64,000 nucleotides of DNA, from positions 160,001 to 224,000 of IMG/VR virus record IMGVR_UViG_3300029288_000057; one strand, 5' to 3'. This stretch comes from a virus. Lineage: Duplodnaviria; Caudoviricetes. The translations under genes and the position numbers were made by a program. This document shows positions 19,545 through 48,926 of the stretch, piece by piece. Position 1 is the stretch's first letter. The number at the start of each line of letters is the position of its first letter. The notes under the pieces were generated by a model that was not told the origin of the DNA, did not search any database, and saw only the letters and a list, made by a program, of their open reading frames with translations.

Positions 19545-20561
19545 TTAATCTTCTCTTTTTTTTACAAATTCTTGCTTTAAAACTTTATAAGTACCTCTAA
19601 ACCTATGTAAGGAATAGGTTATGTCCTTTGTTTCAAGACCAGTGTTTTCTTTAATCAATTGATATACTTGATTTTTATTATAAACTCCTAAAATTTCATG
19701 ACTCCTAAATATTTGAATTATTGCGTCTCCAACCTTTTGGTCGTTTTTTGACAGGGTGCTTTTGTTTAATTCTTTTTCAATGGAGTTTATGATGAAATTG
19801 AAGAGTTCGAAAGATGTTTCTTCTTTCATATAAGGTTTGGGGTCCTCTATCTTTTTATTGTCTGCTTCTTCTTTATTGGCATCATAATCATAAAGAATTT
19901 TTGTGCTTTTTGAATATTCTTTTTTATTTCCTAGAAAATAATGTTTTGCTATAGTTCCAAAATAAGAGAAGGATTTTGTTTTTCTCCATGGATTAAAGTT
20001 GCAGAACTTAAGATATAAAAATGTAAAACAATCTTTTTGTTGTGTTTTCGAGTCCGTATCTGGTAAAAACAATTTATAATTAAACAAAATATTTTCTACC
20101 AATTTTTTGAGCGGTACTTCTATTTTCTCCCTAAAAATCTTTTCCCTTTGTTCGACACGGTTTGCTATTAATAAAACCTCCTCCATCCTTCTTTGCATTT
20201 CATTGCAATAGAATTTATTCACAACTCTTTTTTCTTTTTCTGCCTCTTCTTTTTCTTCTTTTATTCTGTTTTCATAAAAGAATTCGTTTAAATATAAAAA
20301 GTCAATAATTCCAGCTTCTGTATCATCAGTCCAGTATGTTTTAACACACTTTTCATCAAGGATTAATTCCTCAGACTCAATACTTAATTCAGATTTCTTT
20401 AAAATTTCCTCTTCTAGCTCATCTTGTAGCGCAACATCATTGCTTGACAAATCGTCTTGAAGTTTGACAATATCTGAGCACTCTTCGTAAAGAAAGCTTA
20501 TTACATCATCTTCGTTTTGCTCATCAAGAATTATTTTCTTTTTATTGTTTTGCTTTTTCAT
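19545..20561 (-). CDS. gp55: Late-transcription sigma factor, T4 gp55-like
   Basis: FCNFNPWRKTKSFSYFGTIAKHYF resembles sigma region 2 of gp55 (NFDPEK..FAYFT.I...F); start reassigned to ATG 20561. Confidence 0.65.
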   Translation of the reverse strand: MKKQNNKKKIILDEQNEDDVISFLYEECSDIVKLQDDLSSNDVALQDELEEEILKKSELSIESEELILDEKCVKTYWTDDTEAGIIDFLYLNEFFYENRIKEEKEEAEKEKRVVNKFYCNEMQRRMEEVLLIANRVEQREKIFREKIEVPLKKLVENILFNYKLFLPDTDSKTQQKDCFTFLYLKFCNFNPWRKTKSFSYFGTIAKHYFLGNKKEYSKSTKILYDYDANKEEADNKKIEDPKPYMKEETSFELFNFIINSIEKELNKSTLSKNDQKVGDAIIQIFRSHEILGVYNKNQVYQLIKENTGLETKDITYSLHRFRGTYKVLKQEFVKKRED

Positions 20562-21492
20562 AAACCTTATTTCTGTCAACATCAAAGAAATATTCTTTTT
20601 TGGCTAAATCCATCCAAAACTTACCTTCTTCTGGAATAACACCACCTTGTTCAACAGGAATTTGTGTAATATTCTGTGGAATTTTACAATATGTGTGTTT
20701 AAATGAACTATTGCTCTTTACCCTAAATTCATATCCTATTCTTGGAATGCACATCCCTTTCACATCATTATAAATCATTCTCATTAAAAATTCATAATAG
20801 TGACTTATTTTTATACTTTCTTTAAGTGGATAATATTTATCATCTTTTTGTTCACTGTATTCTTTGAGAGCATTTGTTCTAAACATGGCGCCTATTGGGA
20901 CGACACAATTAAATCTAGACAAAAGGTTTAAGTCTATTTTGCCAGCCTCTTCAGAAAGTCCTTCAGCCCATGGAGCTTCATTTACCAAACCGCTAAAAAC
21001 TCCATTTACTGTGTTTCTGACAATTGGGAAAAAGATTGAAATGTTTTCATTTTCAATTGCGTAAGAATTTGCACAATTATACCAGTTTAATCCAGCTACA
21101 TCATTTGGCTCTATTATTGAAATAAACTCATATTCATTTTTGAGTGCAATATTAAATGCCTCATTAAAGATTTTTGGGAAATTATCAATTGAACATGGTT
21201 TGATAAAATAATTGATTTTTTCCTCTGCTTTTATTTCTTCTTCTTCTAATATTCCCGTTTTATCATTTTTCTTTCTGATTGTTATTACGGGGCTCTTTAT
21301 TGCAGTCTCTAATAAGTGATAATTTTCGCTTGTTACGTCAGAAAAACTTTCTGGACATAACACCAATAAGTCCACTTTGTGTGATTGCTGAGCAACACTA
21401 TAAAACGTTTCGTTTAATGTCACCAAATTACTTAAATCGTCTACATATATAGCGACAAGTATATTACTGTTTTTTGAGTCCTTCAAGTTCAT
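20542..21492 (-). CDS. Divergent GT-A (GT2-like) glycosyltransferase
   Basis: SVAQQSHKVDLLV..FNEAFNIAL..FISIIEPND..GAMFR..YEFLMRM. Confidence 0.6.
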   Translation of the reverse strand: MNLKDSKNSNILVAIYVDDLSNLVTLNETFYSVAQQSHKVDLLVLCPESFSDVTSENYHLLETAIKSPVITIRKKNDKTGILEEEEIKAEEKINYFIKPCSIDNFPKIFNEAFNIALKNEYEFISIIEPNDVAGLNWYNCANSYAIENENISIFFPIVRNTVNGVFSGLVNEAPWAEGLSEEAGKIDLNLLSRFNCVVPIGAMFRTNALKEYSEQKDDKYYPLKESIKISHYYEFLMRMIYNDVKGMCIPRIGYEFRVKSNSSFKHTYCKIPQNITQIPVEQGGVIPEEGKFWMDLAKKEYFFDVDRNKVYEKAKQ

Positions 21493-22717
21493 TGATTCTT
21501 TCTTGTTTATATTCGTTAATAATATTTAAAAAATTTTCCTTTTCTCCTTCTTCGGTGTATTTTTCAAGCACCTTTTCATAAGTTTGCTGAATTTCTGGCA
21601 CATCCATCTCTCCATTCAGCCACTTGTCAATAGCAACACCTAAAATTTCTGCTGTTTGGAAAATATCTCCATTAACAGTCCAAAATCCATTTTCTGCGGT
21701 TACATATTCTTTTCCTCCGTATGCATTCCAACCGACTACATGGGTGCCAGATGCCATAGCCTCAAGAGGCAATGTTCCAAATCCCGCAATGTCATCAGTA
21801 TATAAAACAAATGCACAACTTGACAGTCTTTCTGCAAATTCTTTTTTTGATAGTCCACCTAGTTGAATAAATCTTACCCATCTTAAATGCGGATAAAATG
21901 CTTGAAATGTTTTTATGATATTAAATGTTTTCATTTGGTTTTCTTGTCCCCTATTTCCCATAAAACCAACCATTGGATATTTGTTTGATTGTTTTCCAGG
22001 AACCTTAAATAAGTTTCGATTTATACCTTGTGAAAAGCTTTTTACATTTAAACCAGGCATAACAATGTTAAGATATTCAGTTATTGCATCTGAAACAGAA
22101 ATGACATCAGACACACCAAGCCCCTGCCACGTTTCTCCAGTGTTTAAAGAGTTGAGAATGTAAAACCAGCTTTGTGCCAAAATAATCTTTTTACAGGCCA
22201 CTTGCATGGTTTTTTTCATTACATTTGGAAATCCTTCTGGAATTATAAAAAAATCTTCTGGATTAACATTTAGCGCAGTACTATCTTGTTTAGTTCCATC
22301 ATTATAAAAAATAGTTTTCTTATCTGATAAAGGAAGAAATTCAATATCAGAAAAATCAAAATCTAACCACGTTGGATTAAATTTCTCAAAAATTACAGCC
22401 TCTTTCCCCTGCTTTCTTGATTCTTCATAAGACGCTCTCTGGTCTTGTCTTGGTTCAAAAACTATTTTGGACTTATATCCTGCATCTTTTAAAATCCTTG
22501 CAAGTTTGATTAAAACTCCAATTCCACCACTTGCACTATTTAGGGGAGGACAATAGAAATAATAGTTTGATTCGTTGTTTTTAACCTTTTCTTTTACCGA
22601 CTCAACCAGAGCGTTGTGGTCAACCTGTGCGGTATCTGGCATTTCGTTTTTTTCGACTACTGGCTCAACCACAACATTAGGATTGGCTTGTATATTATCA
22701 GTCATTTCTTTTTCCAT
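21464..22717 (-). CDS. GT-B (GT4-like) glycosyltransferase
   Basis: SGGIGVL..AGFGTLPLEAMASGTHVVG. Confidence 0.8.
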   Translation of the reverse strand: MEKEMTDNIQANPNVVVEPVVEKNEMPDTAQVDHNALVESVKEKVKNNESNYYFYCPPLNSASGGIGVLIKLARILKDAGYKSKIVFEPRQDQRASYEESRKQGKEAVIFEKFNPTWLDFDFSDIEFLPLSDKKTIFYNDGTKQDSTALNVNPEDFFIIPEGFPNVMKKTMQVACKKIILAQSWFYILNSLNTGETWQGLGVSDVISVSDAITEYLNIVMPGLNVKSFSQGINRNLFKVPGKQSNKYPMVGFMGNRGQENQMKTFNIIKTFQAFYPHLRWVRFIQLGGLSKKEFAERLSSCAFVLYTDDIAGFGTLPLEAMASGTHVVGWNAYGGKEYVTAENGFWTVNGDIFQTAEILGVAIDKWLNGEMDVPEIQQTYEKVLEKYTEEGEKENFLNIINEYKQERINELEGLKKQ

Positions 22718-22743
22718 ATGAATTATTACATTTATTTAATTAA

Positions 22744-22772
22744 ATTATACTTATTTATTAACGCAAAGTAAA
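22744..22772 (-). promoter_or_regulatory. Host-RNAP-type promoter TTTACT-N17-TATAAT
   Basis: Read directly on the minus strand upstream of ATG 22717. Confidence 0.6.
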
Positions 22773-22780
22773 TAGTTGTT

Positions 22781-23803
22781 TTATTTTTTATGTCTTTTCG
22801 TAGCGACAACCTTCTTTTTTGCAACAACTTTTTTCTTTGCAACATTGTGTTTTCTTTTTTTAATTTCTAGCACTGTTTGAGACAAGGGTTTAATTGTTGT
22901 TTCAGAATAAACTTCCACCACTAAACTCAACAATCTTTCAACGTTTTGTGCACTAATAACACCTTCTGAAATGACTTTGCCATCCATTGTTACATTTCTT
23001 AAAGAAAGAAATTTTTGTTTCGTAACTTCGCTTGTTTTAACCTCTAATTCAAAAGAAAAATGCTTTGGGTTTATTTGTGTAAAAAAATTATTCCTTGGCA
23101 TACAATCATCTTGAAAATCTCTCTCTTCTTTATTACTTACATAGTAAGTTTCTATGGACTTGTTTTCAATATGTATTTGTTCATGTGTGGCCTGTAATTC
23201 AGATTTGTGCTCTTCAATATAGTTGAATAATTTTTCTAATACATCTTCTGTATATTGAATGTGGTGTTTATAGCCGCTGGTGGCTTGTTCTGCAAGTATA
23301 TCTCTTAGCATTGCGGCATTTTTTGCATTTGGCCGTGTGAAAATTAACTTGTTAGAATATTGCTCTCTGTTTGGGTTATTCTTGTCTAGAATTTTATAAT
23401 CGCATTCTTTTTCCCCAAATAATTTTTCCATTTGAGCCTCTGTCAACTCAACCTTTGTTCTGGGTGGCTGCGGGTTGTTAAGTTGAGTTCCTAACGAAAA
23501 TGGGAAATCATCAGATTCTTTTTTTCCATATTCTACAATTTTAGAAAAGTCATCCTTATACCTACCATTCATGATGTTGTTAATCACACCAAGTTTGTTT
23601 TTTTCCATTCCCCTAACCCTTTCTGCCCAAGATGTGTCCGTTTTAGTATCATTTGTAATGGGGGTTTCGTCTTCGTAAAAATCGCTTATTACATCTTGTA
23701 CCATTTCCTTAAAGAAATCTTCGTTAGAAATTTGTTTTGCCATGATTCTTGCTAGTTCTTTTTGAACCATGTTTTTCATTTCTGTTTTTACAGAATTTTT
23801 CAT
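22781..23803 (-). CDS. Hypothetical protein with Lys-rich C-terminal tail
   Basis: Ends KKKVVAKKKVVATKRHKK. Confidence 0.6.
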   Translation of the reverse strand: MKNSVKTEMKNMVQKELARIMAKQISNEDFFKEMVQDVISDFYEDETPITNDTKTDTSWAERVRGMEKNKLGVINNIMNGRYKDDFSKIVEYGKKESDDFPFSLGTQLNNPQPPRTKVELTEAQMEKLFGEKECDYKILDKNNPNREQYSNKLIFTRPNAKNAAMLRDILAEQATSGYKHHIQYTEDVLEKLFNYIEEHKSELQATHEQIHIENKSIETYYVSNKEERDFQDDCMPRNNFFTQINPKHFSFELEVKTSEVTKQKFLSLRNVTMDGKVISEGVISAQNVERLLSLVVEVYSETTIKPLSQTVLEIKKRKHNVAKKKVVAKKKVVATKRHKK

Positions 23804-23807
23804 ATTT

Positions 23808-24584
23808 TTATTTATTTTCAAAAAGTTTTTTTAACAGCATATCGTTATTCAAATCCTTCAATCCCTTAAGTGTATAATCAGCTTCATCATATTGATTGTA
23901 TAACCTATCAATTTTAATAGAAACTTTGTCTTCTGGTTTATTTTGAAACGCTAGTGGAGATGCATCAACAAGAACATCGCAATAATTCCACTTATCTGCA
24001 TCATCTTTTACAACCTGAACATTTCTTGCTCTACTTCCAGTCTTGTGAAGAAAGAAGTAGTTTGCAGAGATTGCTGTGGCTTTTAAGCCTGTAATGAGTA
24101 CGGTTTCGAACAAATTGTTTTGTAACCCATAAGCTTGAATTCTGTTAAAATGGCTCATTGCCCCTTGAAATTCTTCGGAGTCCCCAAATATCCTAAAAGG
24201 ATGCTGCTCATACATGAATTTATTCAATGCCTCCTGGGGTGTTAAGATTTTATTTTCAAAACTATCAAAATTTTGAAATATTATATTTTTTTCTTCTTCT
24301 TCTAATTTAAACGCATTATCATTTTCAAATTCTTTGATTTCTTTAAATTGATAGTGATTTAGCAAATCGGGAGAATCTACTGGGAGAGAAATTAATTCTT
24401 TTATTTTTTCTTCCAGCTTTTTCGTCTTTTCTTCATAATCTTGTTCGGTGGGCTCTTTGAGTTGAAACTCATCGTTCATTTCTACAATACTTTCATTAAT
24501 AATGAAAGTTTTTCTGTACTGTTTATCAAATGCGTCAAGATAATTTCTTATAACGCCATCAATTGAAATTCCTAGTTTTTTCAT
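23808..24584 (-). CDS. HAD 5'(3')-deoxyribonucleotidase-like protein, catalytic motifs degenerate
   Basis: KLGISIDGVIRNY (SxD instead of DxD), DVLVDASP (DA instead of DD), YNQ near the end. Confidence 0.6.
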   Translation of the reverse strand: MKKLGISIDGVIRNYLDAFDKQYRKTFIINESIVEMNDEFQLKEPTEQDYEEKTKKLEEKIKELISLPVDSPDLLNHYQFKEIKEFENDNAFKLEEEEKNIIFQNFDSFENKILTPQEALNKFMYEQHPFRIFGDSEEFQGAMSHFNRIQAYGLQNNLFETVLITGLKATAISANYFFLHKTGSRARNVQVVKDDADKWNYCDVLVDASPLAFQNKPEDKVSIKIDRLYNQYDEADYTLKGLKDLNNDMLLKKLFENK

Positions 24585-24585
24585 A

Positions 24586-24975
24586 TTATATAGCTCTTTT
24601 ATTAAGTAAAACAAATTGTTCCAAACTATGGTTTACACACATTCTGAATAAGAAGTTTTTTTCCATCTTAGCTTCTCTGCATAAAATATTTCCATCCAAG
24701 TGGACTCCTCCTCCTGGAATTGGTATTTCTGAGAGCTTTCCTCTAATTCTTCCTAACATTTCTTTGCAAATTGCCAAAGTATATCTCTTTATCCAAGTGT
24801 TTTGTATTTTAAGGTTTAATTTGCGGTCATCCTCAGAAAGAATAGATGAAAAAAACTCAAAATCTTCTTTGGCAACTACAATTGCTTCATTAATTTGTTC
24901 ATCTGACAGTTCAATATCAATTACAGGACCACCAAGCATCATTTTAATTTGTCTAATAATTTCACTGTTTTCCAT
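24586..24975 (-). CDS. Miniature neck protein, T4 gp13-like
   Basis: LGGPVIDIELSDEQINEAI (gp13 N-terminus) joined closely to WIKRYTLAICKEMLGRIRGKL..IPGGGVHLDG (gp13 C-terminus). Confidence 0.7.
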   Translation of the reverse strand: MENSEIIRQIKMMLGGPVIDIELSDEQINEAIVVAKEDFEFFSSILSEDDRKLNLKIQNTWIKRYTLAICKEMLGRIRGKLSEIPIPGGGVHLDGNILCREAKMEKNFLFRMCVNHSLEQFVLLNKRAI

Positions 24976-25004
24976 AAGTTTTTTATTTGTTATGGTAGAA
25001 AAAT

Positions 25005-25037
25005 AAAAAAAGCCCTTACTAATGTAAAGGCTTTTTT
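25005..25037 (-). terminator. Intrinsic terminator
   Basis: Minus strand GCCTTTAC-ATTA-GTAAGGGC followed by a T-run, after the 25057 stop. Confidence 0.75.
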
Positions 25038-25056
25038 AAAAATATTTAAACTTTAT

Positions 25057-26613
25057 TTATTCGAACGTTGTGAATTCAGCATCGGGTCCAATATACAATA
25101 TAGTCTGACACTTTCCATCATTATGGATTATTACGTCTGAGTGCACCCAATCAGATGCTGCATGATTGTATCCTTGTCTTAATTTGCAGTTACAACCAAC
25201 TTGGACGGCTCCGTCAAATCTTGCCACTCCGTGTGCATGCCCAGTTATTATTTTAGTGTTTAGTCTCTTAAATTGTTGAATATTACCTCTTGAACCGCAT
25301 GTTCCATCCATTCCGTGTTTGCTTAATTCCCATCCTTTTACCTTATATGAACCATCCCTTGGGAGAACTTTAATGCCAGGAAATCTTTGGTTTATTATAT
25401 ATCCCAGAAGTCCATTTGGCGCCTTATCTTCTAATAGCACCTTTGAATATTCGACAAATTCGAGTGCGTTTTTTATGTTTTTCTTTGGGTCTGAGTTGAT
25501 GATAAATCTGTCTAAAAAGTTATCGTGGTTTGAAAACACTACAACTAAATTATATTGTTTAATTGTATCCAAAAACTTCAATATTTTATCGATTTCTTTT
25601 TTTAAAGAACTCACATCTTCAACTTCATTTCTGTATTGTTGAATCCAGCTCTTTTCTTCGTGTGGATTAACACTTTTGAAATCTGCTAAATCGTGTAAAA
25701 AGATTTCATTTGGTTTTAATTTTGGTATTAATTCATTAAATGACCTTTTTATTACATTTTCATCATGAGCTCCATAGTGAATGTCTCCCTTAATCAATGC
25801 CGTTATCTCTTTGTTTCTTGTTACCTGTCCGTTGCTAACATTCCAGTATAAATCATTAAAATCACCGCTCGATTCTGCTGTAATTTGTCTTGCAAAAAAG
25901 ACATCATCATTCTTTATTTCAACAATTACTGCGCCATATGTTAAGTGGAATTCTGAAATCTTTCCTATTTTACTGTCTGTGAAATTTGGTGCTGTTAAAT
26001 TACCAGTAGTAAACATAATTCTTGGGTTATCGTCTAAAACTGGCAAAGATTTCATTTGTATTCTTGGATGTCCTACTACACAGGACTCTTTACAAAGTGA
26101 CTCTAGGCTGGTTAGTGGAAGTATTGCCGTGGGCTGAATTTTAACATCACTTAAAATCGTTATTTTATTGTTTAAATCATGTCTGTTTAATGTAAGATAT
26201 GGTATGATTTTTTCATCCCACCACTCTTGTTTTTTGTCAGTTTCCAGAATAATACTTGTTGGATTGTGATATCTATAAGGAATTACAAGAATCTCCGCAT
26301 CAATAAATTCAGAATAGGCAAGTAAGTTGTTCCAAAACCCAGTGTTTATTTTTGTGGCGTTTTGCGCAGCGGTTATTAGGAATCTTTTCTTTTTTGTGTC
26401 ATGCTGCTTTTGTTTTGCAATTTCCAATTGTTCTGGAATTATTTCAGATTTTTCTTTAATCCCCATTCTTACCAACCAATATCTAACGGTTCTTTCTGAT
26501 TTATTAAAATATTTCATCAGAATTGCCATTCTGTCATCCCATGACAATGATTTGTCTGAATAAATTTTCTTAGTATAAGCAATGTCGGATTCAGTTAATT
26601 TTTTAAATTTCAT
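25057..26613 (-). CDS. HTH + calcineurin-like metallophosphoesterase
   Basis: GDIHYG, HDLAD, SNHD, HG, TGHAH motifs; N-terminal HTH (KSERTVRYWL). Confidence 0.75.
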   Translation of the reverse strand: MKFKKLTESDIAYTKKIYSDKSLSWDDRMAILMKYFNKSERTVRYWLVRMGIKEKSEIIPEQLEIAKQKQHDTKKKRFLITAAQNATKINTGFWNNLLAYSEFIDAEILVIPYRYHNPTSIILETDKKQEWWDEKIIPYLTLNRHDLNNKITILSDVKIQPTAILPLTSLESLCKESCVVGHPRIQMKSLPVLDDNPRIMFTTGNLTAPNFTDSKIGKISEFHLTYGAVIVEIKNDDVFFARQITAESSGDFNDLYWNVSNGQVTRNKEITALIKGDIHYGAHDENVIKRSFNELIPKLKPNEIFLHDLADFKSVNPHEEKSWIQQYRNEVEDVSSLKKEIDKILKFLDTIKQYNLVVVFSNHDNFLDRFIINSDPKKNIKNALEFVEYSKVLLEDKAPNGLLGYIINQRFPGIKVLPRDGSYKVKGWELSKHGMDGTCGSRGNIQQFKRLNTKIITGHAHGVARFDGAVQVGCNCKLRQGYNHAASDWVHSDVIIHNDGKCQTILYIGPDAEFTTFE

Positions 26614-26633
26614 GTCTTTTGTCTTTTGTTGTG

Positions 26634-26665
26634 CAAATATATATAAAAAAAATTAGAAATACAAA
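26634..26665 (-). promoter_or_regulatory. Bacteroidota-type promoter TTTG-N20-TATATTTG
   Basis: Exact -33 TTTG / -7 TAnnTTTG with a 20-nt spacer upstream of ATG 26613. Confidence 0.65.
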
Positions 26666-26670
26666 AAAAA

Positions 26671-27699
26671 TTATTCTATTTTTCCTGTTTTTTGATATTG
26701 GTCAATATCGCCCTTTAATATATCTATAACTAGTTCATTAAAGTTAATCTTTGGTTCCCAACCCAATTTTTCTTTTGCTTTTGTTGCATCTCCCAATAGG
26801 AAATCAACCTCTGTTGGTCTAAAATATTTTGGGTCAATCTCAATTAATAGCTGCCCAGTTTTTTTATCATACCCCTTTTCTTCAACACCAACTCCTTCCC
26901 ACCCAATCTCAAAACCAAGGTAATCAGCTGCAAATTCTACAAATTGTCTTACAGAATAGGCTTTGCCAGTGGCTAAAATAAAATCATCAGGCTCATCAGT
27001 TTGAAGCATTCTCCACATTCCCTCAACATATTCTTTTGCGTGACCCCAATCTCTTTTTGCGTCCATATTCCCCAGGCGAACTGTTTTGTTTTCTCCATAT
27101 TTTATTCTCACCAATTCAGATGTAATTTTTCTAGTTACGAAAGTTAGCCCCCTACGTGGAGATTCGTGGTTAAACAAAATTCCGTTACAGGCAAACAGGT
27201 TATATGCCTCTCTATAGTTTTTTACAATCCAGAATCCATATATTTTAGCCACTCCATATGGGCTTCTTGGGTAGAAAGGCGTTGTTTCTTTTTGTGGAAT
27301 CTCCTGAACTTTTCCAAAAAGCTCGGATGTTGACGCCTGGTAAAACTTTGCTTTGGGACAATGATTTTTTACTGCCTCTAATATATTTAATGTTCCTATG
27401 GCATCTACCTGTCCTGTATAATAAGGAATTTCGAAAGATACTTGAACGTGGCTTTGAGCGGCAAGGTTGTAAATTTCATCTGGTTGTATCTTAGAAACCA
27501 AGTTTGATATGGCTGAGGAGTCTGTTACATCTCCAAAGTGTAATTTTAACTTATCATAGATGTGGTCTATTTTTCCTGTATTAAAAGAGCTACTTCTTCT
27601 AATTGTTCCATGTACTTCATATCCCTTGTCAAGCAGTAGCTCAGCTAGGTAGCTCCCATCTTGTCCGTTTATCCCTGTGCAAAATGCGACTTTTTTCAT
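26671..27699 (-). CDS. gmd: GDP-mannose 4,6-dehydratase
   Basis: [51 protein letters not shown]. Confidence 0.97.
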
Positions 27700-28589: not shown

Positions 28590-28654
28590 TTTTGTTTTTT
28601 ATTATAAATAGTATGAAATTTTCAAACCAGCTATTCCAAAAACTAAAGTCTTAT

Positions 28655-29818: not shown

Positions 29819-29846
29819 ATTTTGTCTTTGTTTCTAATTTTATGAT

Positions 29847-39929: not shown

Positions 39930-39930
39930 A

Positions 39931-40596: not shown

Positions 40597-40612
40597 TATG
40601 TTTAAATAATCA

Positions 40613-40643
40613 TAAAGATAGTGAAATTTATTTAATTTTCAAA
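40613..40643 (-). promoter_or_regulatory. Host-RNAP-type promoter TTTG-N19-TATCTTTA
   Basis: Upstream of neuA. Confidence 0.5.
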
Positions 40644-41381: not shown

Positions 41382-42844
41382 GCTTTTTTTATTTTTCTTG
41401 CTTTGTCATAATTAGTTGGATTTTTTCTTCTATTATATAAAACAAAAAATGGGTTTGTTATGTCTTTACGTAAAATTCTACTAAATAACTTATTTGGATG
41501 TTTTAAAAGATAAAAAATATAGTTTCTAAAAGTTTTATCAGTTGTTTCTTTTAATATTTCTGAAAGCCTTTCGTCGGTAAAGTCAGTAAAGTTAATCCTA
41601 AATCGATATGGTCCAGTTCCGTCTCCAATTGATTCTAAATATTCTTCTTCATTTTTTATTAATCCACTCTCTAAACAAAAATCATATAATTGACTTCCTG
41701 GGTAAGGGGTAATGTATCTGAACTTAAGTGCTGGATAACCAATTTTTTTAAACAAATCTATGGTTTCTTTAATTGTATTTTCATTTTCGCCTGGATATCC
41801 TAAAATTAAACCCATATCAAACGGAAATCCTATTTTAATTGTATATGATAAGATTTTTTCAATTTGTTTTGGAGTTATCTTTTTATTCATGTTTTTCAAT
41901 ATGGTTTCACTGCCACTTTCAACTCCATAGGCAATTTCTAAACACTTGTTATCTTTAGCTTTTTTAATTATTTCTTCACTTACCGTATTGATTCTTGCAT
42001 TTCCATACCATGTAATTTCTAAGTCTTTTATTTTTTCACAGAATTCAAATATATATTTTTTGTTCGAAAAAAGAAGCTCATCTTGAAATCCATATACGTC
42101 TATTCCATATTTTTCCAATAAAAATTTAATTTCTTTAACAAGATGGTCTACGCTTCTTTTTCTAACTTTGGTAAATATTTTTGAACAAAAATTACAATTA
42201 TATGGACATCCTCTCCCAGCCTCTATTTGAATTTTTTTGTGTACTACACCCTTTTTCATGTATTTCTTGGATATATAAACATCGTCAAGTTTTATGTATT
42301 GTTCCATATCAAATAATTCGTATGCTGGAAAGGGAATGGTATCTAAGTCTAAAATTGGGGGGCGTGGTGTGGTAATAAAAACTTGTGATTTATCTTTATA
42401 CGCTATCCCGTTTACTATACTTGGATTGTCAATGTTTTTTAACAAATCTACTATTGTTATTTCTCCTTCACCAATAACACAAATGTCAACATTGGTTTTT
42501 TCTAAAACCAGTTTATAACTGTGGTCGGATAGGTGACCTCCTAGAATTATTTTACAACTCAAAAATGTTTTAAGATATTCTGATATTTTTTTAACTTGAA
42601 CATATGAATAGCTGAGAGCGGTAAGTCCTATAATATCTGGTTTTAATTTTATAATTCTATCTTTTAGCTCGGTATAGTCAACGTCCTCAATTGTTAAATC
42701 TATAACAGAAACATTATAATTGTTTTGTTTTAAAACTGAAGCTATATAGCCAATGCCCAAAGGAAACGTTATATAAGTATCTTTTTTGTCTCCAGTGCTG
42801 TTTGGCCTAATAAGCAACACGTTTTTTATATTATTCTTAACCAT
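41378..42844 (-). CDS. Cobalamin-dependent radical SAM methyltransferase (class B)
   Basis: PLGIGYIAS, LGGH, GEGE, RGCPYNCNFC, GVESG, LGYPGE, TPYPGS. Confidence 0.9.
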   Translation of the reverse strand: MVKNNIKNVLLIRPNSTGDKKDTYITFPLGIGYIASVLKQNNYNVSVIDLTIEDVDYTELKDRIIKLKPDIIGLTALSYSYVQVKKISEYLKTFLSCKIILGGHLSDHSYKLVLEKTNVDICVIGEGEITIVDLLKNIDNPSIVNGIAYKDKSQVFITTPRPPILDLDTIPFPAYELFDMEQYIKLDDVYISKKYMKKGVVHKKIQIEAGRGCPYNCNFCSKIFTKVRKRSVDHLVKEIKFLLEKYGIDVYGFQDELLFSNKKYIFEFCEKIKDLEITWYGNARINTVSEEIIKKAKDNKCLEIAYGVESGSETILKNMNKKITPKQIEKILSYTIKIGFPFDMGLILGYPGENENTIKETIDLFKKIGYPALKFRYITPYPGSQLYDFCLESGLIKNEEEYLESIGDGTGPYRFRINFTDFTDERLSEILKETTDKTFRNYIFYLLKHPNKLFSRILRKDITNPFFVLYNRRKNPTNYDKARKIKKA

Positions 42845-43373
42845 CTTTTTTGTAATGTTTTTCAATAAATTCTTCTAATTCTGGAGAATTTAAGAGTTCT
42901 TGGTTTTCTATTATTTTATCTATAGGCCAATCCCACCATTTTATTTCTAAAAGCTTTTTGATTGAATTTTCGTCAAATCTTTTTGCTACAAGTTCTGCTG
43001 GATTTCCACGAACAACAGAATATGGGCGAACAGTTTTTGTGACATGTGAATTTGCTGCTATTATTGCTCCATCACCAACCTTAATTCCACTCATTATGGT
43101 TACCCCCTGTCCAATCCATACGTCATTTCCTATAATTACATTTCCTCTTGTTGTTCCTTTTTCTATTGTTTTCTTTTTAAAGGTGTGTTCACACACATGA
43201 CCAAATGGATAAGTAGAAATGTTATTTAAATCATGTAGCCCATTTCCAAAGAAAACAATTACATCTCGCCCTATACCACAAAACTTGCCTATATGCAATT
43301 CGACATCTTGATGGAAATCTGCAAAAACCTCTGTTATGTTTTGATGTCCGTATGTAAATTTTCCTACTTTCAT
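42837..43373 (-). CDS. Hexapeptide-repeat O-acetyltransferase (CatB/Vat-like)
   Basis: IGKFCGI, STYPF, IGNDVWIG, GNPA, EIKWWDW. Confidence 0.88.
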   Translation of the reverse strand: MKVGKFTYGHQNITEVFADFHQDVELHIGKFCGIGRDVIVFFGNGLHDLNNISTYPFGHVCEHTFKKKTIEKGTTRGNVIIGNDVWIGQGVTIMSGIKVGDGAIIAANSHVTKTVRPYSVVRGNPAELVAKRFDENSIKKLLEIKWWDWPIDKIIENQELLNSPELEEFIEKHYKKDG

Positions 43374-45040
43374 TTTACCAACTCTTGTATTTTATTTTTT
43401 AAGAATTCTTTGTAGTCCCAAAACCTTTTACTTTTTTCAAAATTTTCCTCAACAAAAGCCTTTTTTTCATTATAAGTGTTTTCTGTTAAACTATTACACA
43501 CATTTATTATTTCTTCCAAACTATTAACAATATACATTCCTTCTGTATTAAAATATTCTCCAATGCCAGTGCACCCATAGTATATTGGAATTGTTTTTGT
43601 TTTAAAACAATCAATAAGTTTTTCAGTGAAATAATATTTATTTCTCATGTTTTCTATTGCTATGTGAAATTGACTATCAAATAAAGCATTTTTTTCATCT
43701 CCCAATGTTTTCGTATCTTCTAAGTTTAATACATCTCCAGAATAGTTACCACTTACAAAAAAACTTTTGGGGATTTCTATTTGGCCTTGTTTTTCCCACA
43801 GTTCCTGTCTCATCACATGTGCGCTCGTTATCTTCTTACCGCCAACTATGGTAGAAACTTGAAATTTCTTTTCAGGATAAATGTATGGGGTTTTTATCCA
43901 CGTTGTTCCGTATTCAAAAAGGTGAGCATTGTTGCATTTTTCTAAAACAGTTTCATCAAAAGTAAGTATATAATCAAAAGATTGATGGTTTTCAATAGCT
44001 TTTTCAATAACATTTGGTATTATTGCAGATGATTCTATGATTAGCAGAATTTTTACAGCATCTTCACTTCTATTGTCAAACCCATTCATATCCACAAATA
44101 ACTCTATTTGTTTTTCGTGTGTAAATTGAAAGTCAAAGGCAAATGGACAAAAAACTCTAATGTCTTTCATTATTTGACTTTTTATTTTTTCATAATCGTT
44201 TTTGTCATATTCTATTTCAACATCCTTGTTATAGAACAACTTCATATATAACGCAAATCTACCTTTTGCCCAATCTACATATGTGGCAGGAACACTTCCT
44301 TGTCCGTTTTTATAAAAATTCATTCCAGACCCTACTCCAGCAAAATGTATTATGTTATCTCCAAAATCCATTATCTTGTTTAGTTCGCCGTACTTATTAA
44401 GAAAACTTGCATCTTCATTTGGAGAACCGAATTTTTCATAATCTAAATGATATATTTTCCCACCATTTTTTAAAATATCAAATGATATTGGGTCAAAAAA
44501 ATCAATACAGGGAAATCCAATCGGATTGTAATATCCAACAACCATTCTGTGAATAGTGTCAAAATCAAAAGGTGATACCTTTTGGTTGTTATATCCAAAA
44601 AAATATGTACCAACAACATCAGAAATGCTGTCATATTCTCCATTTTTATTAGCCACATTCTTTTTGTATAATCTTCGAGGACCTATTAAGTCAAACCCTT
44701 CGTCAAATTTGTTTAATATATAGCTTAAGCATTCTGAACGAAATATGGTATCGCTGTCAAAATGTATTATTTGATTATAATCTCCATATTCCCCCTTTAA
44801 AACTTTTGTGAAAATATATGCCGTCCCCAGGTGCCCTTGGTTTTTATACATATTTAAAAGCACATCATCACCAGAAAAATCTATATATTCTATGTTTTTA
44901 AATTTACCAAGCTCTTTAAAGTCTTTATGTGTTCCAGCCACGTGAACAATTGTGTCTGGATGATATTTAAAAAAGCTTTCGAGACACTTTTTTCCAATAA
45001 GACCACAATTGTATATTTCTGTATAAATGATAGTTTTCAT
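43370..45040 (-). CDS. Two-domain glycosyltransferase (GT-A with DSD motif fused to GT10-like)
   Basis: N-half HFDSDT..IHFAG; C-half QFHIAIEN..FTEKLIDCF..TIPIYYG. Confidence 0.75.
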   Translation of the reverse strand: MKTIIYTEIYNCGLIGKKCLESFFKYHPDTIVHVAGTHKDFKELGKFKNIEYIDFSGDDVLLNMYKNQGHLGTAYIFTKVLKGEYGDYNQIIHFDSDTIFRSECLSYILNKFDEGFDLIGPRRLYKKNVANKNGEYDSISDVVGTYFFGYNNQKVSPFDFDTIHRMVVGYYNPIGFPCIDFFDPISFDILKNGGKIYHLDYEKFGSPNEDASFLNKYGELNKIMDFGDNIIHFAGVGSGMNFYKNGQGSVPATYVDWAKGRFALYMKLFYNKDVEIEYDKNDYEKIKSQIMKDIRVFCPFAFDFQFTHEKQIELFVDMNGFDNRSEDAVKILLIIESSAIIPNVIEKAIENHQSFDYILTFDETVLEKCNNAHLFEYGTTWIKTPYIYPEKKFQVSTIVGGKKITSAHVMRQELWEKQGQIEIPKSFFVSGNYSGDVLNLEDTKTLGDEKNALFDSQFHIAIENMRNKYYFTEKLIDCFKTKTIPIYYGCTGIGEYFNTEGMYIVNSLEEIINVCNSLTENTYNEKKAFVEENFEKSKRFWDYKEFLKNKIQELVK

Positions 45041-45043
45041 TCG

Positions 45044-45721: not shown

Positions 45722-45723
45722 GA

Positions 45724-46467
45724 TTAATATAATTTTTCTATTCTTTGATACTTTTGTTTTGCTCTCACAACTACTTCGACTTCTCTTTGTCTTGGAGCAT
45801 TCGTGTTTCCATCACTATTTTGGTTGGCAACATTATAAACATATAATATTTCTGGAATATATCTTGACCTTTCTGCAGACATTTCAAGCATGGGAAATTG
45901 AAAACTTAGGTCTCCAGCAGTATCCAACCAACGCCCATCATCAAATTTAAAATCCTTTTCATTTATTAACAAAAAAAGCTCTCTTCGATATGTTCTTAGG
46001 TGAGAACCAAGCCATTGATGCTCTCTGAATGCATTTTTTGATATTACACTGTCTGGATATGCATGATAAATATGAGACACGCTTCTATATGGAAATTCAC
46101 AATATGTGCCATATGTCATATATACATCCCCAGAATTATATACATCATTAAGTTTGCTAAGAATCTTGCCGCCATTTAAATAATCATCCCCATCTAGGCT
46201 AACGCAAATTGTATTCGGCTTTGAAAGCTGTGTTAACCACAACATATTGGCTATTTGTGGCAAACGGACTTCATTTTGATAAACGCTTAAAATAGGATAT
46301 TCCTCAGAATATTTTTTAGCAATCTCAAATGTCTTATCCGTTGATTTTGCATCAACAAGAATTACTTCATAATTTTTATATTTTTGAGTTACTGCTGTGA
46401 TTAAACACTGTTCAATCCACTCTTCTTGATTGCATGCGTCTATAATTATAGTAAAATGATTTTCCAT
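45724..46467 (-). CDS. GT2 glycosyltransferase
   Basis: DAKSTD, LDGDDYL, SHLRTY, FPMLEM. Confidence 0.85.
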   Translation of the reverse strand: MENHFTIIIDACNQEEWIEQCLITAVTQKYKNYEVILVDAKSTDKTFEIAKKYSEEYPILSVYQNEVRLPQIANMLWLTQLSKPNTICVSLDGDDYLNGGKILSKLNDVYNSGDVYMTYGTYCEFPYRSVSHIYHAYPDSVISKNAFREHQWLGSHLRTYRRELFLLINEKDFKFDDGRWLDTAGDLSFQFPMLEMSAERSRYIPEILYVYNVANQNSDGNTNAPRQREVEVVVRAKQKYQRIEKLY

Positions 46468-46472
46468 GTTTA

Positions 46473-47339
46473 TTATAAAAAGGTTTTTATATGTGCGCTT
46501 TTTTGTTTTATTATTTCTTCTTTCTTTTCCTTTGAGAGTAGTTTAAAATCCTCATAAATTTTCTTCATTTCATTTATAAATGGATTACTAAAATAAGTTG
46601 GGGGATGGTACAAGTGGAAAACATCAATGGGAGGGTGTTCGCTTGTACACATTTTGTCTATTGTGTTTATTTTTTCCCAGAAATATGAATCTTCTGGAGA
46701 ATTTGCCAAAAACAAGTCTGCATCATATCCACCCACATCAAAAAGAAGCCCCCTTTCAACCAATATGGAGCCCCCTGGTGCCCCAAGCATTACTTTGCCT
46801 CCCAATCTTGGCAAATCTACTCCCTTAAGGTCTAAATTTAAGTCATCTATGTTTATCCTGCCTTGGACAATTTCTTTTGTTAGGTCAATATCGCAATATA
46901 AAGCACGCCTTTGTTGAAAACACTGTAGTGCTTTACATTTTTGATTGGTGATATTCAGTGCGATTTTTTGAAAAAAGTCCGATTGTATGACACAATCAAT
47001 ATCATGAAAAATAATGTATTTTGATATATTTGAATATAATGCCCCCATGTTATATGCCAAACATTTATTAAACAAATCACCTTCTTCACACTTAACCCAA
47101 ATATAATTAATCTTATTGTCCTTACAAAATTTAGAATGTTCAGTTATGTGCGAATGTTCTATTACTGTGTATATAATGTTGAGCGGGGAGTTTTCTTTAG
47201 CTTTTAAAAAACTATTATACATTGGCGCCGCAAACTCTTTCCTCCCACGAACTGGAATAAGAAAATTAATATCAACTAATTCTTCTGGCTGCTGTATAAT
47301 AATTATACTATCTTCTTTTATGTCTTTATAATTAATCAT
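46473..47339 (-). CDS. GT7/GT2-like glycosyltransferase
   Basis: IPVRGR, FNKCLAYNMGA, FHDID, VGGYD..ED, HLYHP. Confidence 0.8.
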   Translation of the reverse strand: MINYKDIKEDSIIIIQQPEELVDINFLIPVRGRKEFAAPMYNSFLKAKENSPLNIIYTVIEHSHITEHSKFCKDNKINYIWVKCEEGDLFNKCLAYNMGALYSNISKYIIFHDIDCVIQSDFFQKIALNITNQKCKALQCFQQRRALYCDIDLTKEIVQGRINIDDLNLDLKGVDLPRLGGKVMLGAPGGSILVERGLLFDVGGYDADLFLANSPEDSYFWEKINTIDKMCTSEHPPIDVFHLYHPPTYFSNPFINEMKKIYEDFKLLSKEKKEEIIKQKSAHIKTFL

Positions 47340-48123
47340 ATTTTTCTATCTTTTTAAAACTTGACTTTTTGCTTATCTCATTGTGTATGTCCCACTGTAG
47401 CTGTTGGTTTACCTTGTCGTCGCTGATTGGGTTGTCTCTGTTATATATATACAACACTTTATCAATAAATTTTATTCTTTTCAAACCAGCCATCTCCATT
47501 ATTGGAAATAATATGGCAACATCATAGGTCATTTTATAAAAATTTCCATCTTTGTCTTTTAAACAAGAAAATTCAGGGTCTTGCTCTTTTATTTTTTGAT
47601 AAAGGCCTGCTCTAAAGGTTCTTATGTGAGAAACTCTAAATGGCGCCTTTCTCAAATTGTCAAATTCTATTTGTGTATACTCTGAGGCAAACCCCATTCT
47701 CCCATCAGTCCAAGATGCTTGTCCATATGTTATCCAACAATCATTTCTGCAATAAACTTCGTTTATATAACTAATTACATTTTTGTTCGGCAACCAGTCA
47801 TCCCCATCCAAAAGCACGACTATTTCATGTGGTTCACAATGCTCCATTATTGCTTTGTGAATATTGGGTAATGCCGTTGTGTTTTCTTCATTTCTTATAC
47901 AAATTGCTTTTGGATTATCATGTGGCAATAAGTCCCAGGAATTATCAGTAGAGGCATCATCGATAAAAATGACCTTATAATTATCATATTTTTGCGTTAA
48001 TGCCGAATTTGCACATCTTTCTATAAAGGTAGATGCGTTATAAAACGGAACTATTATTTTAAAATAATGTTCATCGAGTTCCACGCTCGATGGCGCTGGT
48101 GATATAAAAAAAGGTGGTAACAT
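47332..48123 (-). CDS. GT2 glycosyltransferase (paralog of 45724..46467)
   Basis: IVPFYNA, DDASTD, LDGDDWL, SHIRTF, FPIMEM. Confidence 0.85.
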   Translation of the reverse strand: MLPPFFISPAPSSVELDEHYFKIIVPFYNASTFIERCANSALTQKYDNYKVIFIDDASTDNSWDLLPHDNPKAICIRNEENTTALPNIHKAIMEHCEPHEIVVLLDGDDWLPNKNVISYINEVYCRNDCWITYGQASWTDGRMGFASEYTQIEFDNLRKAPFRVSHIRTFRAGLYQKIKEQDPEFSCLKDKDGNFYKMTYDVAILFPIMEMAGLKRIKFIDKVLYIYNRDNPISDDKVNQQLQWDIHNEISKKSSFKKIEKYD

Positions 48124-48125
48124 AA

Positions 48126-48926
48126 TTATATTTTTTTAAATTTAAATTCTATTTCTTGGTGGCATCCTATAATGCTTGAGAAATCCATTCTCTCAAAATC
48201 TATAACTTCTCCATTAAGATATTTATCGTTTAATTCTTTTGTTGTAAAACCATATTTTTCTCCATTTCTGTTTGGATATGTTATATTTACCATGTTGTTT
48301 GGAGAGTTAATTAAAACACTAGTCTTATAAGCTACCATAATTTCTTTTGGGTAACTATCAAATACTTGCAGTGCAGCTTCCAGAACATTTGGATTGTTGA
48401 AACTCGTGGCTTTAATCAGTTTCTTAATTTCTTTTGTCCTAAAAATATGGCCGTCAACAGAAAGGGGATATCCAAAATCAGCATAGCTTTTCGACCAGTT
48501 CCACCAAATAAATTTTTCATCTCTCTTGTTTGTAATAAGAACATTGTCGCATTTCATAGTGTAACAATGAGTTATGTTTGTTCCAAGTCTAAGACTGAAG
48601 CAAAAAATGTCATCATCATTTAAACACTCATCAATGTCATCTTCATATACATTATTGTATATTATGTCATCATCGGTAAAAAAACAAGTTTTGTTCAACG
48701 TGGAATTTAACAATTCAACAGTTTGTTCTTTAAAATTTACTTCTTCAACATAATTGACACTTTTAAATCTTTCCTTTATTAAATCATATGCCTTCTTAAA
48801 TTCCTCATCAGAACATTTATATAAAACATTAATGTTGAATATTCCTTGTGCGTTTTTCTCAATTGATTCTAACAAAAGATGTAATTGTGCGGGGCGGTCA
48901 AAACTAAAAACTATTGCATTTATCAT
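48126..48926 (-). CDS. GT-A glycosyltransferase
   Basis: VFSFDRPAQL..LLES, FFTDDD, FSLRLG, YPLSVDG. Confidence 0.7.
   Translation of the reverse strand: MINAIVFSFDRPAQLHLLLESIEKNAQGIFNINVLYKCSDEEFKKAYDLIKERFKSVNYVEEVNFKEQTVELLNSTLNKTCFFTDDDIIYNNVYEDDIDECLNDDDIFCFSLRLGTNITHCYTMKCDNVLITNKRDEKFIWWNWSKSYADFGYPLSVDGHIFRTKEIKKLIKATSFNNPNVLEAALQVFDSYPKEIMVAYKTSVLINSPNNMVNITYPNRNGEKYGFTTKELNDKYLNGEVIDFERMDFSSIIGCHQEIEFKFKKI

Follow-up and report, generated by a model that had tools for sequence, protein, structure and literature searches.

Chlorovirus PBCV-1 encodes its own Gmd and GDP-fucose synthase, a pair matched here by Gmd and an Fcl-like reductase, and carries glycans on its capsid, and the fibrils of mimivirus bear glycans made by virus-encoded enzymes. 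Among phages, O-glycans on the capsid and tail tube have been described in mycobacteriophages (Freeman et al. 2023, as cited in PMC12619734), and four core glycosyltransferase (GT) families characterize a lineage of large aquatic Bacteroidota phages (PMC12619734). Large cyanomyophages carry "cell-wall/LPS" (lipopolysaccharide) clusters of 13-24 sugar genes that have been read, without tests, as a means of modifying the host surface or the DNA (PMC9602691, PMC12801897): the 13 sugar genes of S-SCSM1 include those for Gmd, Fcl, and fucosyltransferases (PMC9602691), and S-SCSM2R, alongside which P-SSM2 is cited, has 22, including 13 GTs and a KdsA/KdsB ulosonic-acid pair (PMC12801897). Here, we analyze a sugar-gene island in bases 160001-224000 (hereafter, the window; 64,000 nucleotides, to which coordinates refer unless marked as those of the genome or of another contig) of IMG/VR record IMGVR_UViG_3300029288_000057, a viral contig of 290,886 bp and 33% GC that is linear according to IMG/VR and 91% complete according to CheckV.

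The island shares with P-SSM2, S-SCSM1, and S-SCSM2R a T4-like background, a genome of at least about 200 kb, Gmd, an enzyme of the GDP-fucose synthase family, GT10/GT11-type enzymes, and many GT2 enzymes, but it differs from the cyanomyophage clusters by having (i) a nine-carbon nonulosonic acid (NulO) module, (ii) a minimal MptE/GT42-like transferase, (iii) three radical S-adenosylmethionine (SAM) enzymes, and (iv) a ColD-type dehydrase. A Kyanoviridae-classified marine virus record, AG-345-L05, encodes a NeuB that is 57% identical to the island enzyme, together with GT11 and GT2 homologs. As in the virion glycosylation of chloroviruses, mimiviruses, and mycobacteriophages, nucleotide-sugar enzymes and soluble GTs are supplied by the virus and there is no lipid-carrier or export step. 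In mycobacteriophages, the GT genes adjoin the capsid and tail-tube genes and the glycosylated segments are Ser/Thr-rich C-terminal tails, whereas here the capsid gene lies 14 kb off, with PhoH and other genes in between, and its product has no such tail.

Among bacterial systems, the GDP-L-colitose pathway of Escherichia coli O55 and Yersinia likewise combines Gmd, a ColD whose Lys is replaced by His, a reductase of the Fcl family, and an adjacent GT11, but the phage set lies outside any Wzx/Wzy O-antigen locus; unlike in Wzx/Wzy- or ABC-dependent O-antigen and capsule loci, a PF02397 search and a hydropathy scan found no initiating transferase, exporter, polymerase, or ligase in the island. 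The decasaccharide of Tannerella forsythia, with fucose, deoxy- and methylated sugars, and a terminal tailored NulO (a derivative of pseudaminic acid [Pse] or legionaminic acid [Leg]), is akin to the glycan predicted here, and the Tannerella NulO transferase gene adjoins methyltransferase and CMP-NulO genes, as in the phage (PMC5420450, PMC6120980). Tannerella differs in its use of a lipid carrier, a flippase, and periplasmic transfer, as well as in the size of its transferases (∼445 aa) (PMC5420450). The literature searched contained neither a paper on NulO synthesis by phage enzymes nor one connecting radical SAM enzymes with NulO biosynthesis, and we found no description of a NulO module with a virus-specific minimal transferase, of a radical SAM set beside NeuB, or of a ColD-type colitose branch in a phage.

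An intact sugar-gene island in a large phage genome

Gene identities were assigned from Pfam, NCBIfam, PHROG, Protein Data Bank (PDB), and Atlas searches. Between 20542 and 48926, 30 open reading frames (ORFs) lie on the minus strand, all intact and separated by small gaps or overlaps, and ∼22 of them are glycan genes, in agreement with the more than 20 co-oriented sugar genes over ∼28 kb that an initial annotation of this DNA had proposed. The density of glycan genes is far above chance; the compact core of the island spans 26671-48926, and all PF00535 matches of the genome fall within the island. Five genes have no link to glycans, namely a T5 A1-like gene, a homing endonuclease gene, an adaptor-like ORF, and two unknown ORFs. 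The analysis confirms a genuine, intact, phage-owned island for glycan synthesis and tailoring. The enzyme inventory of the initial annotation was also largely borne out: its ∼10 GTs correspond to 10-11 found with Pfam, PDB, and Atlas; its three radical SAM enzymes are all present, each with a CX3CX2C motif; and its acetyltransferase is a hexapeptide-repeat enzyme. Of its two SAM-dependent methyltransferases, one is clear and the other has only a weak match, and the gene that it took for a DegT aminotransferase encodes a ColD-type 3-dehydrase, the actual aminotransferase of the island being a class IV enzyme (38336-39313).

The GT set comprises three GT2 enzymes, one GT2-like enzyme, a member of a viral GT-A family, a GT4, a GT11, two GT10-like enzymes (one of them fused), the GT42/MptE-like transferase, and, as a lead, the GT-A-like protein at 20542. 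The viral GT-A protein, encoded by the first island gene, had no Pfam, PHROG, or PDB sequence match; its nearest Atlas clusters (93-1278 members; TM 0.90-0.94) are 78-89% viral, and one of them is named glycosyltransferase. A homolog of 72% identity occupies the same position in L005, a 277-kb contig that is independent of this record and stems from a different sample; otherwise, the protein matched only a 735-kb uncultured phage.

L005 begins its island in the same way, with the PhoH flank, two small genes, and the same first six island genes, such that the order of the island is shared between large phages, a synteny that the initial annotation had put forward as a check. Identities to L005 are 52-87% for the first six genes (78-87% for the three GT2 and GT2-like proteins at 45724-48123), 69% for the MptE-like transferase, 67% for the SPASM-type radical SAM enzyme, and 81% for NeuB, and different tailoring genes stand between the shared ones. 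The fused GT of the island corresponds to two separate, adjacent genes in L005 (294 and 266 aa) and in another relative, L008 (288 and 264 aa); within its C-terminal half, residues 451-545 match the Helicobacter pylori alpha-1,3-fucosyltransferase in the PDB at 4e-5.

Viral islands that combine a deoxyhexose module, a NulO module, and many GTs form a recurrent type, because their genes recur within 10 kb of the MptE-like transferase gene. Single-protein scans of IMG/VR, run with either a flank gene or the transferase, gave nothing, and an alignment-based scan (pattern plus tblastn) gave 63 loci of the transferase family; among the viral loci, those with the gene in question within 10 kb of the transferase numbered 46 for NeuB, 45 for the CMP-synthetase, 47 for ColD/DegT, 37 for Gmd, 42 for an Fcl-like reductase, 40 for a GT10-like enzyme, and 25 for GT11. 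Among one genome each of 185,579 prokaryotic species, the family occurred in three contigs, all from metagenome-assembled genomes (MAGs). In an exhaustive profile search, 180 representatives of clusters matched at E<=1e-30; the majority are stand-alone proteins, and most of the 150 best representatives are 225-300 aa long. Among GenBank phages, NeuB is rare (3 of 50,697 records), tblastn with the transferase found no match, and megablast with 19 kb of island sequence as the query found no DNA-level match in the same 50,697 records.

The GC content is flat over the island (0.30-0.34, vs 0.33 for the genome). Because of this, and because L005 has the same island at its PhoH flank, the island is not a chimera. 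Mobile elements reside within it, namely a LAGLIDADG homing endonuclease gene and, in L008, an intein in Gmd; flat GC, the order shared with L005, and these elements therefore point to a long residence in phage genomes. That the locus is an assembly chimera or a decaying, functionless bacterial insert is hardly credible: the record is a linear, 91% complete metagenomic contig, which would allow for such an error, but 30 of 30 ORFs are intact and tightly packed in sequence of flat GC, the position and order recur in L005, which is independent and comes from a different sample, as well as in shorter contigs, and the mobile elements are of phage type.

An intrinsic terminator at 25037-25006 is the only strong one on the minus strand within 17-56 kb, and it separates a core transcription unit of 24 kb (48926 to 25057) from a left part, in which two GT genes lie. 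The sequence TTTGAAAATT-N13/14-TATCTTT has two intergenic occurrences in the 291-kb genome, both in the island, and a TTTGAAAATT-type site is kept upstream of the first island gene in L005. Sigma-70-type promoter predictions were dropped, their counts being no higher than in shuffled sequence. A different motif, TATTTATAA, is found ahead of the capsid gene and of the majority of genes at genome positions 107-290 kb; it has a T-run before and an A-run after it and stands 9-40 nt upstream of many starts, with examples at 63236, 49466, 28602, 19520, 14323, 4565, and 2684. At genome positions 55-80 kb, a second motif class has the same core, to which a CTCCCTCTTT element is added upstream along with a CCAA leader, and these are probably two promoter classes.

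Predicted deoxyhexose and nonulosonic acid chemistry

The first module of the island would make a GDP-activated 6-deoxyhexose. ColD/WbdK is a GDP-4-keto-6-deoxymannose 3-dehydrase, and the His that it has in place of the Schiff-base Lys is diagnostic of ColD/E1 enzymes in structures from the Holden laboratory. The ColD-type protein of the island has such a His in its active-site segment (FGHHISTIEGG), with no Lys there, as does its L008 homolog. The adjacent epimerase-reductase scored 182 bits on the Fcl equivalog model, against a cut-off of 500; ColC and Fcl specificities are inseparable by sequence, so that the product may be colitose, fucose, or both. No NTP-transferase (nucleotidyltransferase) was found when one was looked for in the 291-kb genome, and GDP-mannose must therefore be supplied by the host. 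In the route that we propose, host GDP-mannose would pass from Gmd to the ColD-type dehydrase, dependent on pyridoxamine phosphate, and on to the Fcl/ColC-like reductase, with GDP-L-colitose and/or GDP-L-fucose as the predicted product. The GT11 and the two GT10-like enzymes would be the obvious transferases for these sugars. The intein of the L008 Gmd gene (PF14890) lies within L008 16552-18687, and in the island, the homing endonuclease gene has a perfect TATTTATAA motif ahead of it.

The second module centers on a short NeuB, which scored below cut-off on the NCBIfam models for both NeuB (228 bits) and PseI (167 bits), and on a CMP-nonulosonate synthetase. The classical precursor routes to N-acetylneuraminic acid (Neu5Ac), Pse, and Leg are not encoded: a search for an epimerase of the NeuC/LegG type found none, and of the CMP-Pse and CMP-Leg pathways (PseB/C/H/G/I/F and LegB/C/H/G/I/F), only NeuB-like and PseF-like genes are present. 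A classical Leg/Pse reading of the DegT and short-chain dehydrogenase/reductase (SDR) genes was ruled out, the DegT protein being of ColD type and the SDR GalE-like (its best PDB match, 4ZRM, is a UDP-glucose 4-epimerase). A second, short SDR-like protein of the island is likewise short in L005 (238 aa).

Between and around these genes lie tailoring enzymes, two of which have their closest solved relatives in aminoglycoside biosynthesis. The SPASM-type radical SAM enzyme, which adjoins NeuB also in L005, L008, and L016 (the last from a bacterial MAG), has BtrN (4M7S/4M7T, E 6e-11) as its only good PDB match and is a candidate sugar C-OH dehydrogenase; it is similar in size to BtrN, the 2-deoxy-scyllo-inosamine dehydrogenase (261 vs 269 aa), but the match is partial and chiefly covers the auxiliary-cluster region. 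BtrN chemistry is a matter of oxidation followed by amination, and the pairing of the SPASM enzyme with the class IV aminotransferase (73% identical to its L008 homolog) mirrors this logic. The B12-binding radical SAM enzyme at 41378-42865 is nearest to AprD4 (PDB 6FD2, E 5e-19; NCBIfam AprD4 family, 86 bits), a diol dehydratase for sugar deoxygenation, again with a partial match. In both cases, the phage substrate would presumably be a nonulosonic acid rather than an aminoglycoside precursor. The CX3CX2C motif of the third radical SAM enzyme, the KedN5-like one, is at residue 207.

We propose that the short NeuB would make a nine-carbon ulosonic acid, which the CMP-synthetase would activate, and that tailoring most likely acts on the NulO itself and not on a nucleotide-hexose precursor. 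The BtrN-like dehydrogenase and the class IV aminotransferase would convert a hydroxyl into a keto group and then into an amine, the AprD4-like radical SAM dehydratase would deoxygenate, and the methyltransferases, including the B12 radical SAM C-methyltransferase, and the acetyltransferase would modify the NulO further; we infer the order of these steps. The tailoring set is exchanged as a block in two more distant islands, L009 and L011: NeuB, the cytidylyltransferase, a methyltransferase, and the MptE-like gene are retained, but where the radical SAM pair would stand there are two SDR dehydrogenases, a class III aminotransferase, a TIM-barrel enzyme, and a glyoxalase-fold protein. This suggests that a radical toolkit and a conventional one can stand in for each other, either of which may oxidize, aminate, and deoxygenate the NulO after its synthesis.

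The candidate NulO transferase, a 245-aa protein whose gene adjoins that of the CMP-NulO synthetase, shares with Cst-I/Cst-II (CAZy family GT42) and with Maf a nucleotide-binding fold and the GPS and G-x-D motifs, of which S25, G179, and D181 are invariant across the phage family. A profile of 23 homologs matched Cst-II in the PDB at E 5e-6 (positions 26-248 vs residues 5-221) and Maf 5MU5 at 1.5e-4 over positions 26-110 only. Consistent with this, Foldseek of an AlphaFold2 model (predicted local distance difference test score, 94) matched Maf 5MU5 at E 1.5e-6 with TMt 0.22 (core only), and Cst-II at E 4.8e-6 with TMq and TMt both 0.51, covering all of Cst-II. Its length is about that of Cst-II, GT42 sialyltransferases being single-domain folds of about 260-300 aa, at an identity to Cst-II and Maf of only 15-17%, whereas Maf proteins have at least about 600 aa, with N- and C-terminal domains that are absent here. 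On its predicted structure, then, the protein is a bare catalytic core, a virus-specific GT42/Maf-core enzyme. The argument that a Maf-type enzyme implies a protein acceptor was dropped, the bare core being equally close to Cst-II, and no flagellin (PF00669) match was found in the 291-kb genome.

Features of the island and its left part (window coordinates; aa, amino acids)
Feature	Position	Strand	Evidence or remark
First island gene, GT-A-fold glycosyltransferase, largely viral family	48126-48926	-	Atlas clusters
Divergent intergenic region with promoter-like site TTTGAAAATT-N14-TATCTTT	48927-49013	-	pattern scan
Three GT2/GT2-like	47332-48123, 46473-47339, 45724-46467	-	PF00535 4e-18, 2e-15; PF10111 7e-8
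Short SDR-like protein, 225 aa	45044-45721	-	C-terminal part of Pfam Epimerase model only, 1.5e-5
Two-part fused GT, 556 aa, GT10 (alpha-1,3-fucosyltransferase)-like C-terminal half	43370-45040	-	PF00852 4e-5
Hexapeptide-repeat acetyltransferase	42837-43373	-	Pfam Hexapep 7e-10; NCBIfam Vat/CatB-like 155 bits, under cut-off
B12-binding radical SAM, AprD4-like	41378-42865	-	PF02310 + PF04055; CX3CX2C at residue 220
Minimal MptE-like/GT42-like transferase, candidate CMP-NulO transferase, 245 aa	40644-41381	-	PF01973 (MptE-like, DUF115) 1.7e-11
Second island promoter-like site	40597-40643	-	precedes CMP-nonulosonate synthetase gene
CMP-nonulosonate (cytidylyl) synthetase	39931-40596	-	PF02348 1.4e-24; NCBIfam PseF 106 bits, under cut-off
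SAM-dependent methyltransferase	39306-39929	-	several class I Pfam models, 1e-12 to 1e-8
Class IV aminotransferase (branched-chain/D-amino-acid type)	38336-39313	-	PF01063 1e-46; NCBIfam BCAT 218 bits, under cut-off
Radical SAM/SPASM, BtrN-type	37542-38327	-	PF13186 + PF04055; CX3CX2C at residue 15
NeuB-family nonulosonate synthase, short form, 274 aa	36650-37474	-	PF03102 3e-62
GT2 glycosyltransferase	35949-36653	-	PF00535 2e-14
Weak methyltransferase-like protein	35257-35952	-	Methyltransf_24 at 0.004 only
GalE-like NAD-dependent sugar-nucleotide 4-epimerase/dehydratase	34320-35255	-	PF01370 1e-49; PDB 4ZRM E 2e-43
B12 radical SAM, KedN5-like C-methyltransferase, 656 aa	32357-34327	-	NF033712 283 bits, under cut-off, residues 23-395
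GT11 (alpha-1,2-fucosyl/colitosyl-type) and GT10-like	30771-32356	-	PF01531 4e-26; PF00852 1e-6
GDP-6-deoxyhexose module: Gmd, homing endonuclease, ColD-type dehydrase, Fcl/ColC-like reductase	26671-30767	-	NCBIfam/PDB/Pfam
Fcl/ColC-like epimerase-reductase	29847-30767	-	GDP-fucose synthases E 7e-60
ColD-type 3-dehydrase, DegT fold	28655-29818	-	PDB ColD/WbdK E 3e-52, full length
LAGLIDADG/NUMOD3 homing endonuclease	27696-28589	-	PF03161 5e-16; between Gmd and ColD-like gene
Gmd, GDP-mannose 4,6-dehydratase	26671-27699	-	TIGR01472 537 bits, above 415 cut-off (equivalog)
T5 A1-like protein, last gene before terminator	25057-26613	-	phrog_1745 4e-133
Terminator, 14-bp stem + T run	25006-25037	-	intrinsic; ends core transcription unit
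Left part of island, beyond terminator	20542-24975	-	GT-A-like, GT4, two unknown ORFs, adaptor-like ORF
Small adaptor-like ORF	24586-24975	-	phrog_211 6e-11
Unknown ORF region	22781-24614	-	
GT4 glycosyltransferase	21464-22717	-	PF00534 8e-8
GT-A-like protein	20542-21492	-	Atlas feature matches to all-viral GT2 clusters, 0.98; lead only

Candidate acceptors of the glycan

A Kyte-Doolittle hydropathy scan of the island ORFs found no multi-pass membrane protein, and across the 291-kb genome, the only multi-pass proteins were a cation diffusion facilitator (CDF) efflux protein and one unannotated protein of 1105 aa. No Wzx, Wzy, or ABC exporter emerged from the scan of island and genome, and a PF02397 search of the 291-kb record found no initiating phosphoglycosyl transferase, as the initial annotation had stated for the island. 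Flippase, polymerase, and ligase were excluded by this crude scan only, and proteins with 8-12 helices, such as Wzx, Wzy, WaaL, and ABC permeases, would not escape it. Alongside 59 related viral islands (1.29 Mb), there was again no export, Wzx/Wzy-like, or lipid-carrier gene, and one bacterial MAG look-alike that we examined (L016, Elusimicrobia, 1499-15250) has an ABC exporter beside its cluster, as well as a weakly YfhO-like membrane protein (927 aa, 11 segments) and a 515-aa protein with 8 segments in its flanks. Cytoplasmic assembly without export of its own, as initially proposed, is thus well supported by the lack of membrane genes, and the virion acceptor proposed with it is plausible, unproven. 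As a relative of the NulO module, L016 is the only one that looks clearly bacterial, and it carries the SPASM enzyme, NeuB, cytidylyltransferase, B12 radical SAM enzyme, and MptE-like protein.

We tentatively favor virion proteins (capsid, fiber, or decoration) as the acceptor, glycosylated before or during assembly, and rate this at somewhat short of an even chance. The 10-11 soluble cytoplasmic GTs would build an oligosaccharide, and the virus-specific minimal GT42/Maf-core enzyme would cap it with a NulO. The all-soluble enzyme set in the phage and its relatives counts in favor of a virion acceptor, as does the mosaic tailoring between close relatives, which is expected for an exposed, selected glycan. 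Further, the capping transferase and the first GT are both largely specific to viruses, as would suit an acceptor carried along by the virus better than a lipid-linked glycan particular to the host, and a virion acceptor would parallel the chloroviruses, mimiviruses, and mycobacteriophages. In its most specific form, namely a virion coat of colitose/fucose oligosaccharide with a novel NulO, tailored by radical SAM enzymes after condensation, transferred by the virus-specific minimal transferase, and common to many uncultured phages, the proposal is doubtful.

Several observations weigh against a virion acceptor. No recognizable protein-initiating GT (full-length Maf, GT41, etc.) was identified, the NulO transferase is no less similar to Cst-II, which acts on glycans, than to Maf, and the C-terminal tail of the capsid protein is not Ser/Thr-rich. 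The pattern [ST][GA]x[ST] is enriched in the fiber proteins (z 5-10), but it was dropped as a fiber glycosylation sequon, its enrichment arising from repeated modules such as LSATTLSANTIISAGTN. The promoter-like sites of the island are unlike the TATTTATAA motif ahead of the capsid gene, and the core unit runs through to the A1-like nuclease gene before its sole clear terminator, A1 being a pre-early function in T5. Among 134 flank ORFs of 46 non-redundant related islands, PHROG matches included hardly any structural genes and no enrichment of them (the matches were to GTs, reductases, exonucleases, aminotransferases, and DNA methyltransferases), at a PHROG sensitivity that is low for these phages, most structural ORFs of the window also being without a match. 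Moreover, the proposed order of tailoring after condensation rests on nearest solved relatives with partial matches.

Remodeling of the host surface, the main rival, is rather unlikely on balance: the GTs would extend, on the cytoplasmic face, an undecaprenyl-linked glycan of the host (an O-antigen unit, a capsule unit, or, in a Bacteroidota host, the general protein O-glycosylation glycan), and the initiating transferase, flippase, and ligase or oligosaccharyltransferase of the host would complete the job. The resulting colitose/fucose- and NulO-capped surface could, for example, block superinfection or keep progeny from sticking to debris. Soluble GTs that extend a lipid-linked host glycan would give the same sequence picture; GT2, GT4, GT10, GT11, and GT42 enzymes with Gmd, ColD, and ColC are the families of O-antigen and lipooligosaccharide assembly, and among solved structures, Cst-II, a sialyltransferase of lipooligosaccharide, comes closest to the NulO transferase over its full length. 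The promoter-like sites of the island, besides differing from those of the virion genes, have a layout (TTTG-N19/20-TAnnTTT) that resembles Bacteroidota housekeeping promoters, and the best phage relatives of the neighboring genes infect Flavobacteriia. In addition, the Tannerella NulO caps a fucose/deoxy-sugar O-glycan made on a lipid carrier (PMC5420450, PMC6120980, PMC8698959), and the analogous cyanomyophage clusters have been read as host-surface modification (PMC9602691, PMC12801897). Against this, none of the 59 related viral islands has a membrane component, unlike known seroconverting phages; the families of the transferase and the first GT are nearly absent from bacteria, which is unexpected if they were fitted to host-specific lipid-linked acceptors; the flippase and ligase of the host would need to accept a foreign glycan; and the investment would be large for an apparently lytic jumbo phage.

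Two further readings have to be weighed against virion proteins. A product other than a glycoconjugate on protein or envelope polymer, namely a glycoside that is soluble or anchored in lipid (for example, a glycolipid or a metabolite like the aminoglycosides), is improbable: BtrN and AprD4, the closest solved relatives of two of the radical SAM enzymes, do come from aminoglycoside antibiotic pathways, but a CMP-activated NulO and ∼10 GTs point to an oligosaccharide on a macromolecular acceptor, and no exporter, aglycone-forming, or inositol-cyclitol genes were seen in the island. Hypermodification of the phage DNA, in which sugars on modified bases would serve to evade restriction, is very unlikely. 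In its favor, hypermodification of DNA by phage GTs is known to involve a variety of glycans (Pyle et al. 2024, as cited in PMC12619734), and exonucleases and DNA methyltransferases occur near related islands. Such a route via the thymidylate-synthase homolog was nevertheless ruled out, since the only such homolog of the genome is a canonical ThyA, which has in PFNIAS the Asn that specifies dUMP and matches bacterial enzymes at ∼220 bits, and no hydroxymethyl-pyrimidine route was found in the genome. To our knowledge, a NulO-capped oligosaccharide built by ∼10 GTs would also lie far beyond known DNA glycans.

Neighboring genes, other features, and implications

From its gp6- and gp25-like baseplate wedge genes (11933-14232) and its gp23-family capsid gene (start at 63282), the phage is classed as a T4-like myophage. 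The initial annotation placed the island between T4-like morphogenesis genes, which holds for the baseplate and capsid genes, whereas immediately to the right lie PhoH and further non-structural genes. At the protein level, the neighboring genes have their nearest relatives in phages of Microcystis, Flavobacterium, Maribacter, and Cellulophaga and in a 484-kb uncultured phage, and the A1-like gene has tblastn identities of 37-44% to A1-like genes of Maribacter, Flavobacterium, and Cellulophaga phages. Because these relatives include phages of Flavobacterium, Maribacter, and Cellulophaga, a Bacteroidota host is plausible, and the host is probably not a cyanobacterium. Outside the island, on the plus strand at 53285-56254, an HNH/homing-endonuclease-like gene, a GT4-like gene (457 aa; phrog_7162, E 2e-36), and an ADP-ribosylglycohydrolase gene (phrog_6572, E 6e-56) adjoin one another. 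PD-(D/E)XK-type exonucleases are recurrent neighbors of the related islands.

The fiber-like proteins of the phage contain 21-31% Ser+Thr, vs a genome median of 11%, and have repeats in common, such as LSATTLSANTIISAGTNISSLFIKTGGDS and TLDSLSVSGATSLGTLSATT. The set comprises window 2706-3599 and genome 225397-228198, 235317-235817, 237327-239972, and 242488-243195; one fiber-like protein, of 933 aa, is encoded two genes after the capsid gene. The thymidylate synthase (genome 121734-123053; L013 1261-2580, minus strand) is 439 aa long, with several insertions between canonical ThyA blocks, and has kept the catalytic Cys and the PFNIAS Asn. The CDF cation-efflux homolog is encoded at genome 92617-93528. 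The 1105-aa protein (genome 262198-265515), with ∼9 hydrophobic segments, no Pfam match, and two TATTTATAA motifs ahead of its gene, could be a tape-measure or ejection protein.

What large sugar-gene clusters do in marine phages has been an open question from their first report onward, and the island with its 60-odd relatives provides a defined, comparable set of genes for this question. Within that set, the minimal NulO transferase family, found almost exclusively on viral contigs, is a concrete enzyme to test, as are the radical SAM enzymes beside NeuB, which may represent a new way of making deoxy-amino nonulosonic acids. Should phages use sialic-acid-like and dideoxy sugars to coat themselves or re-coat their hosts, then adsorption, superinfection, grazing, and immune recognition would be affected, and so would the way in which "auxiliary" sugar genes in viromes are read.

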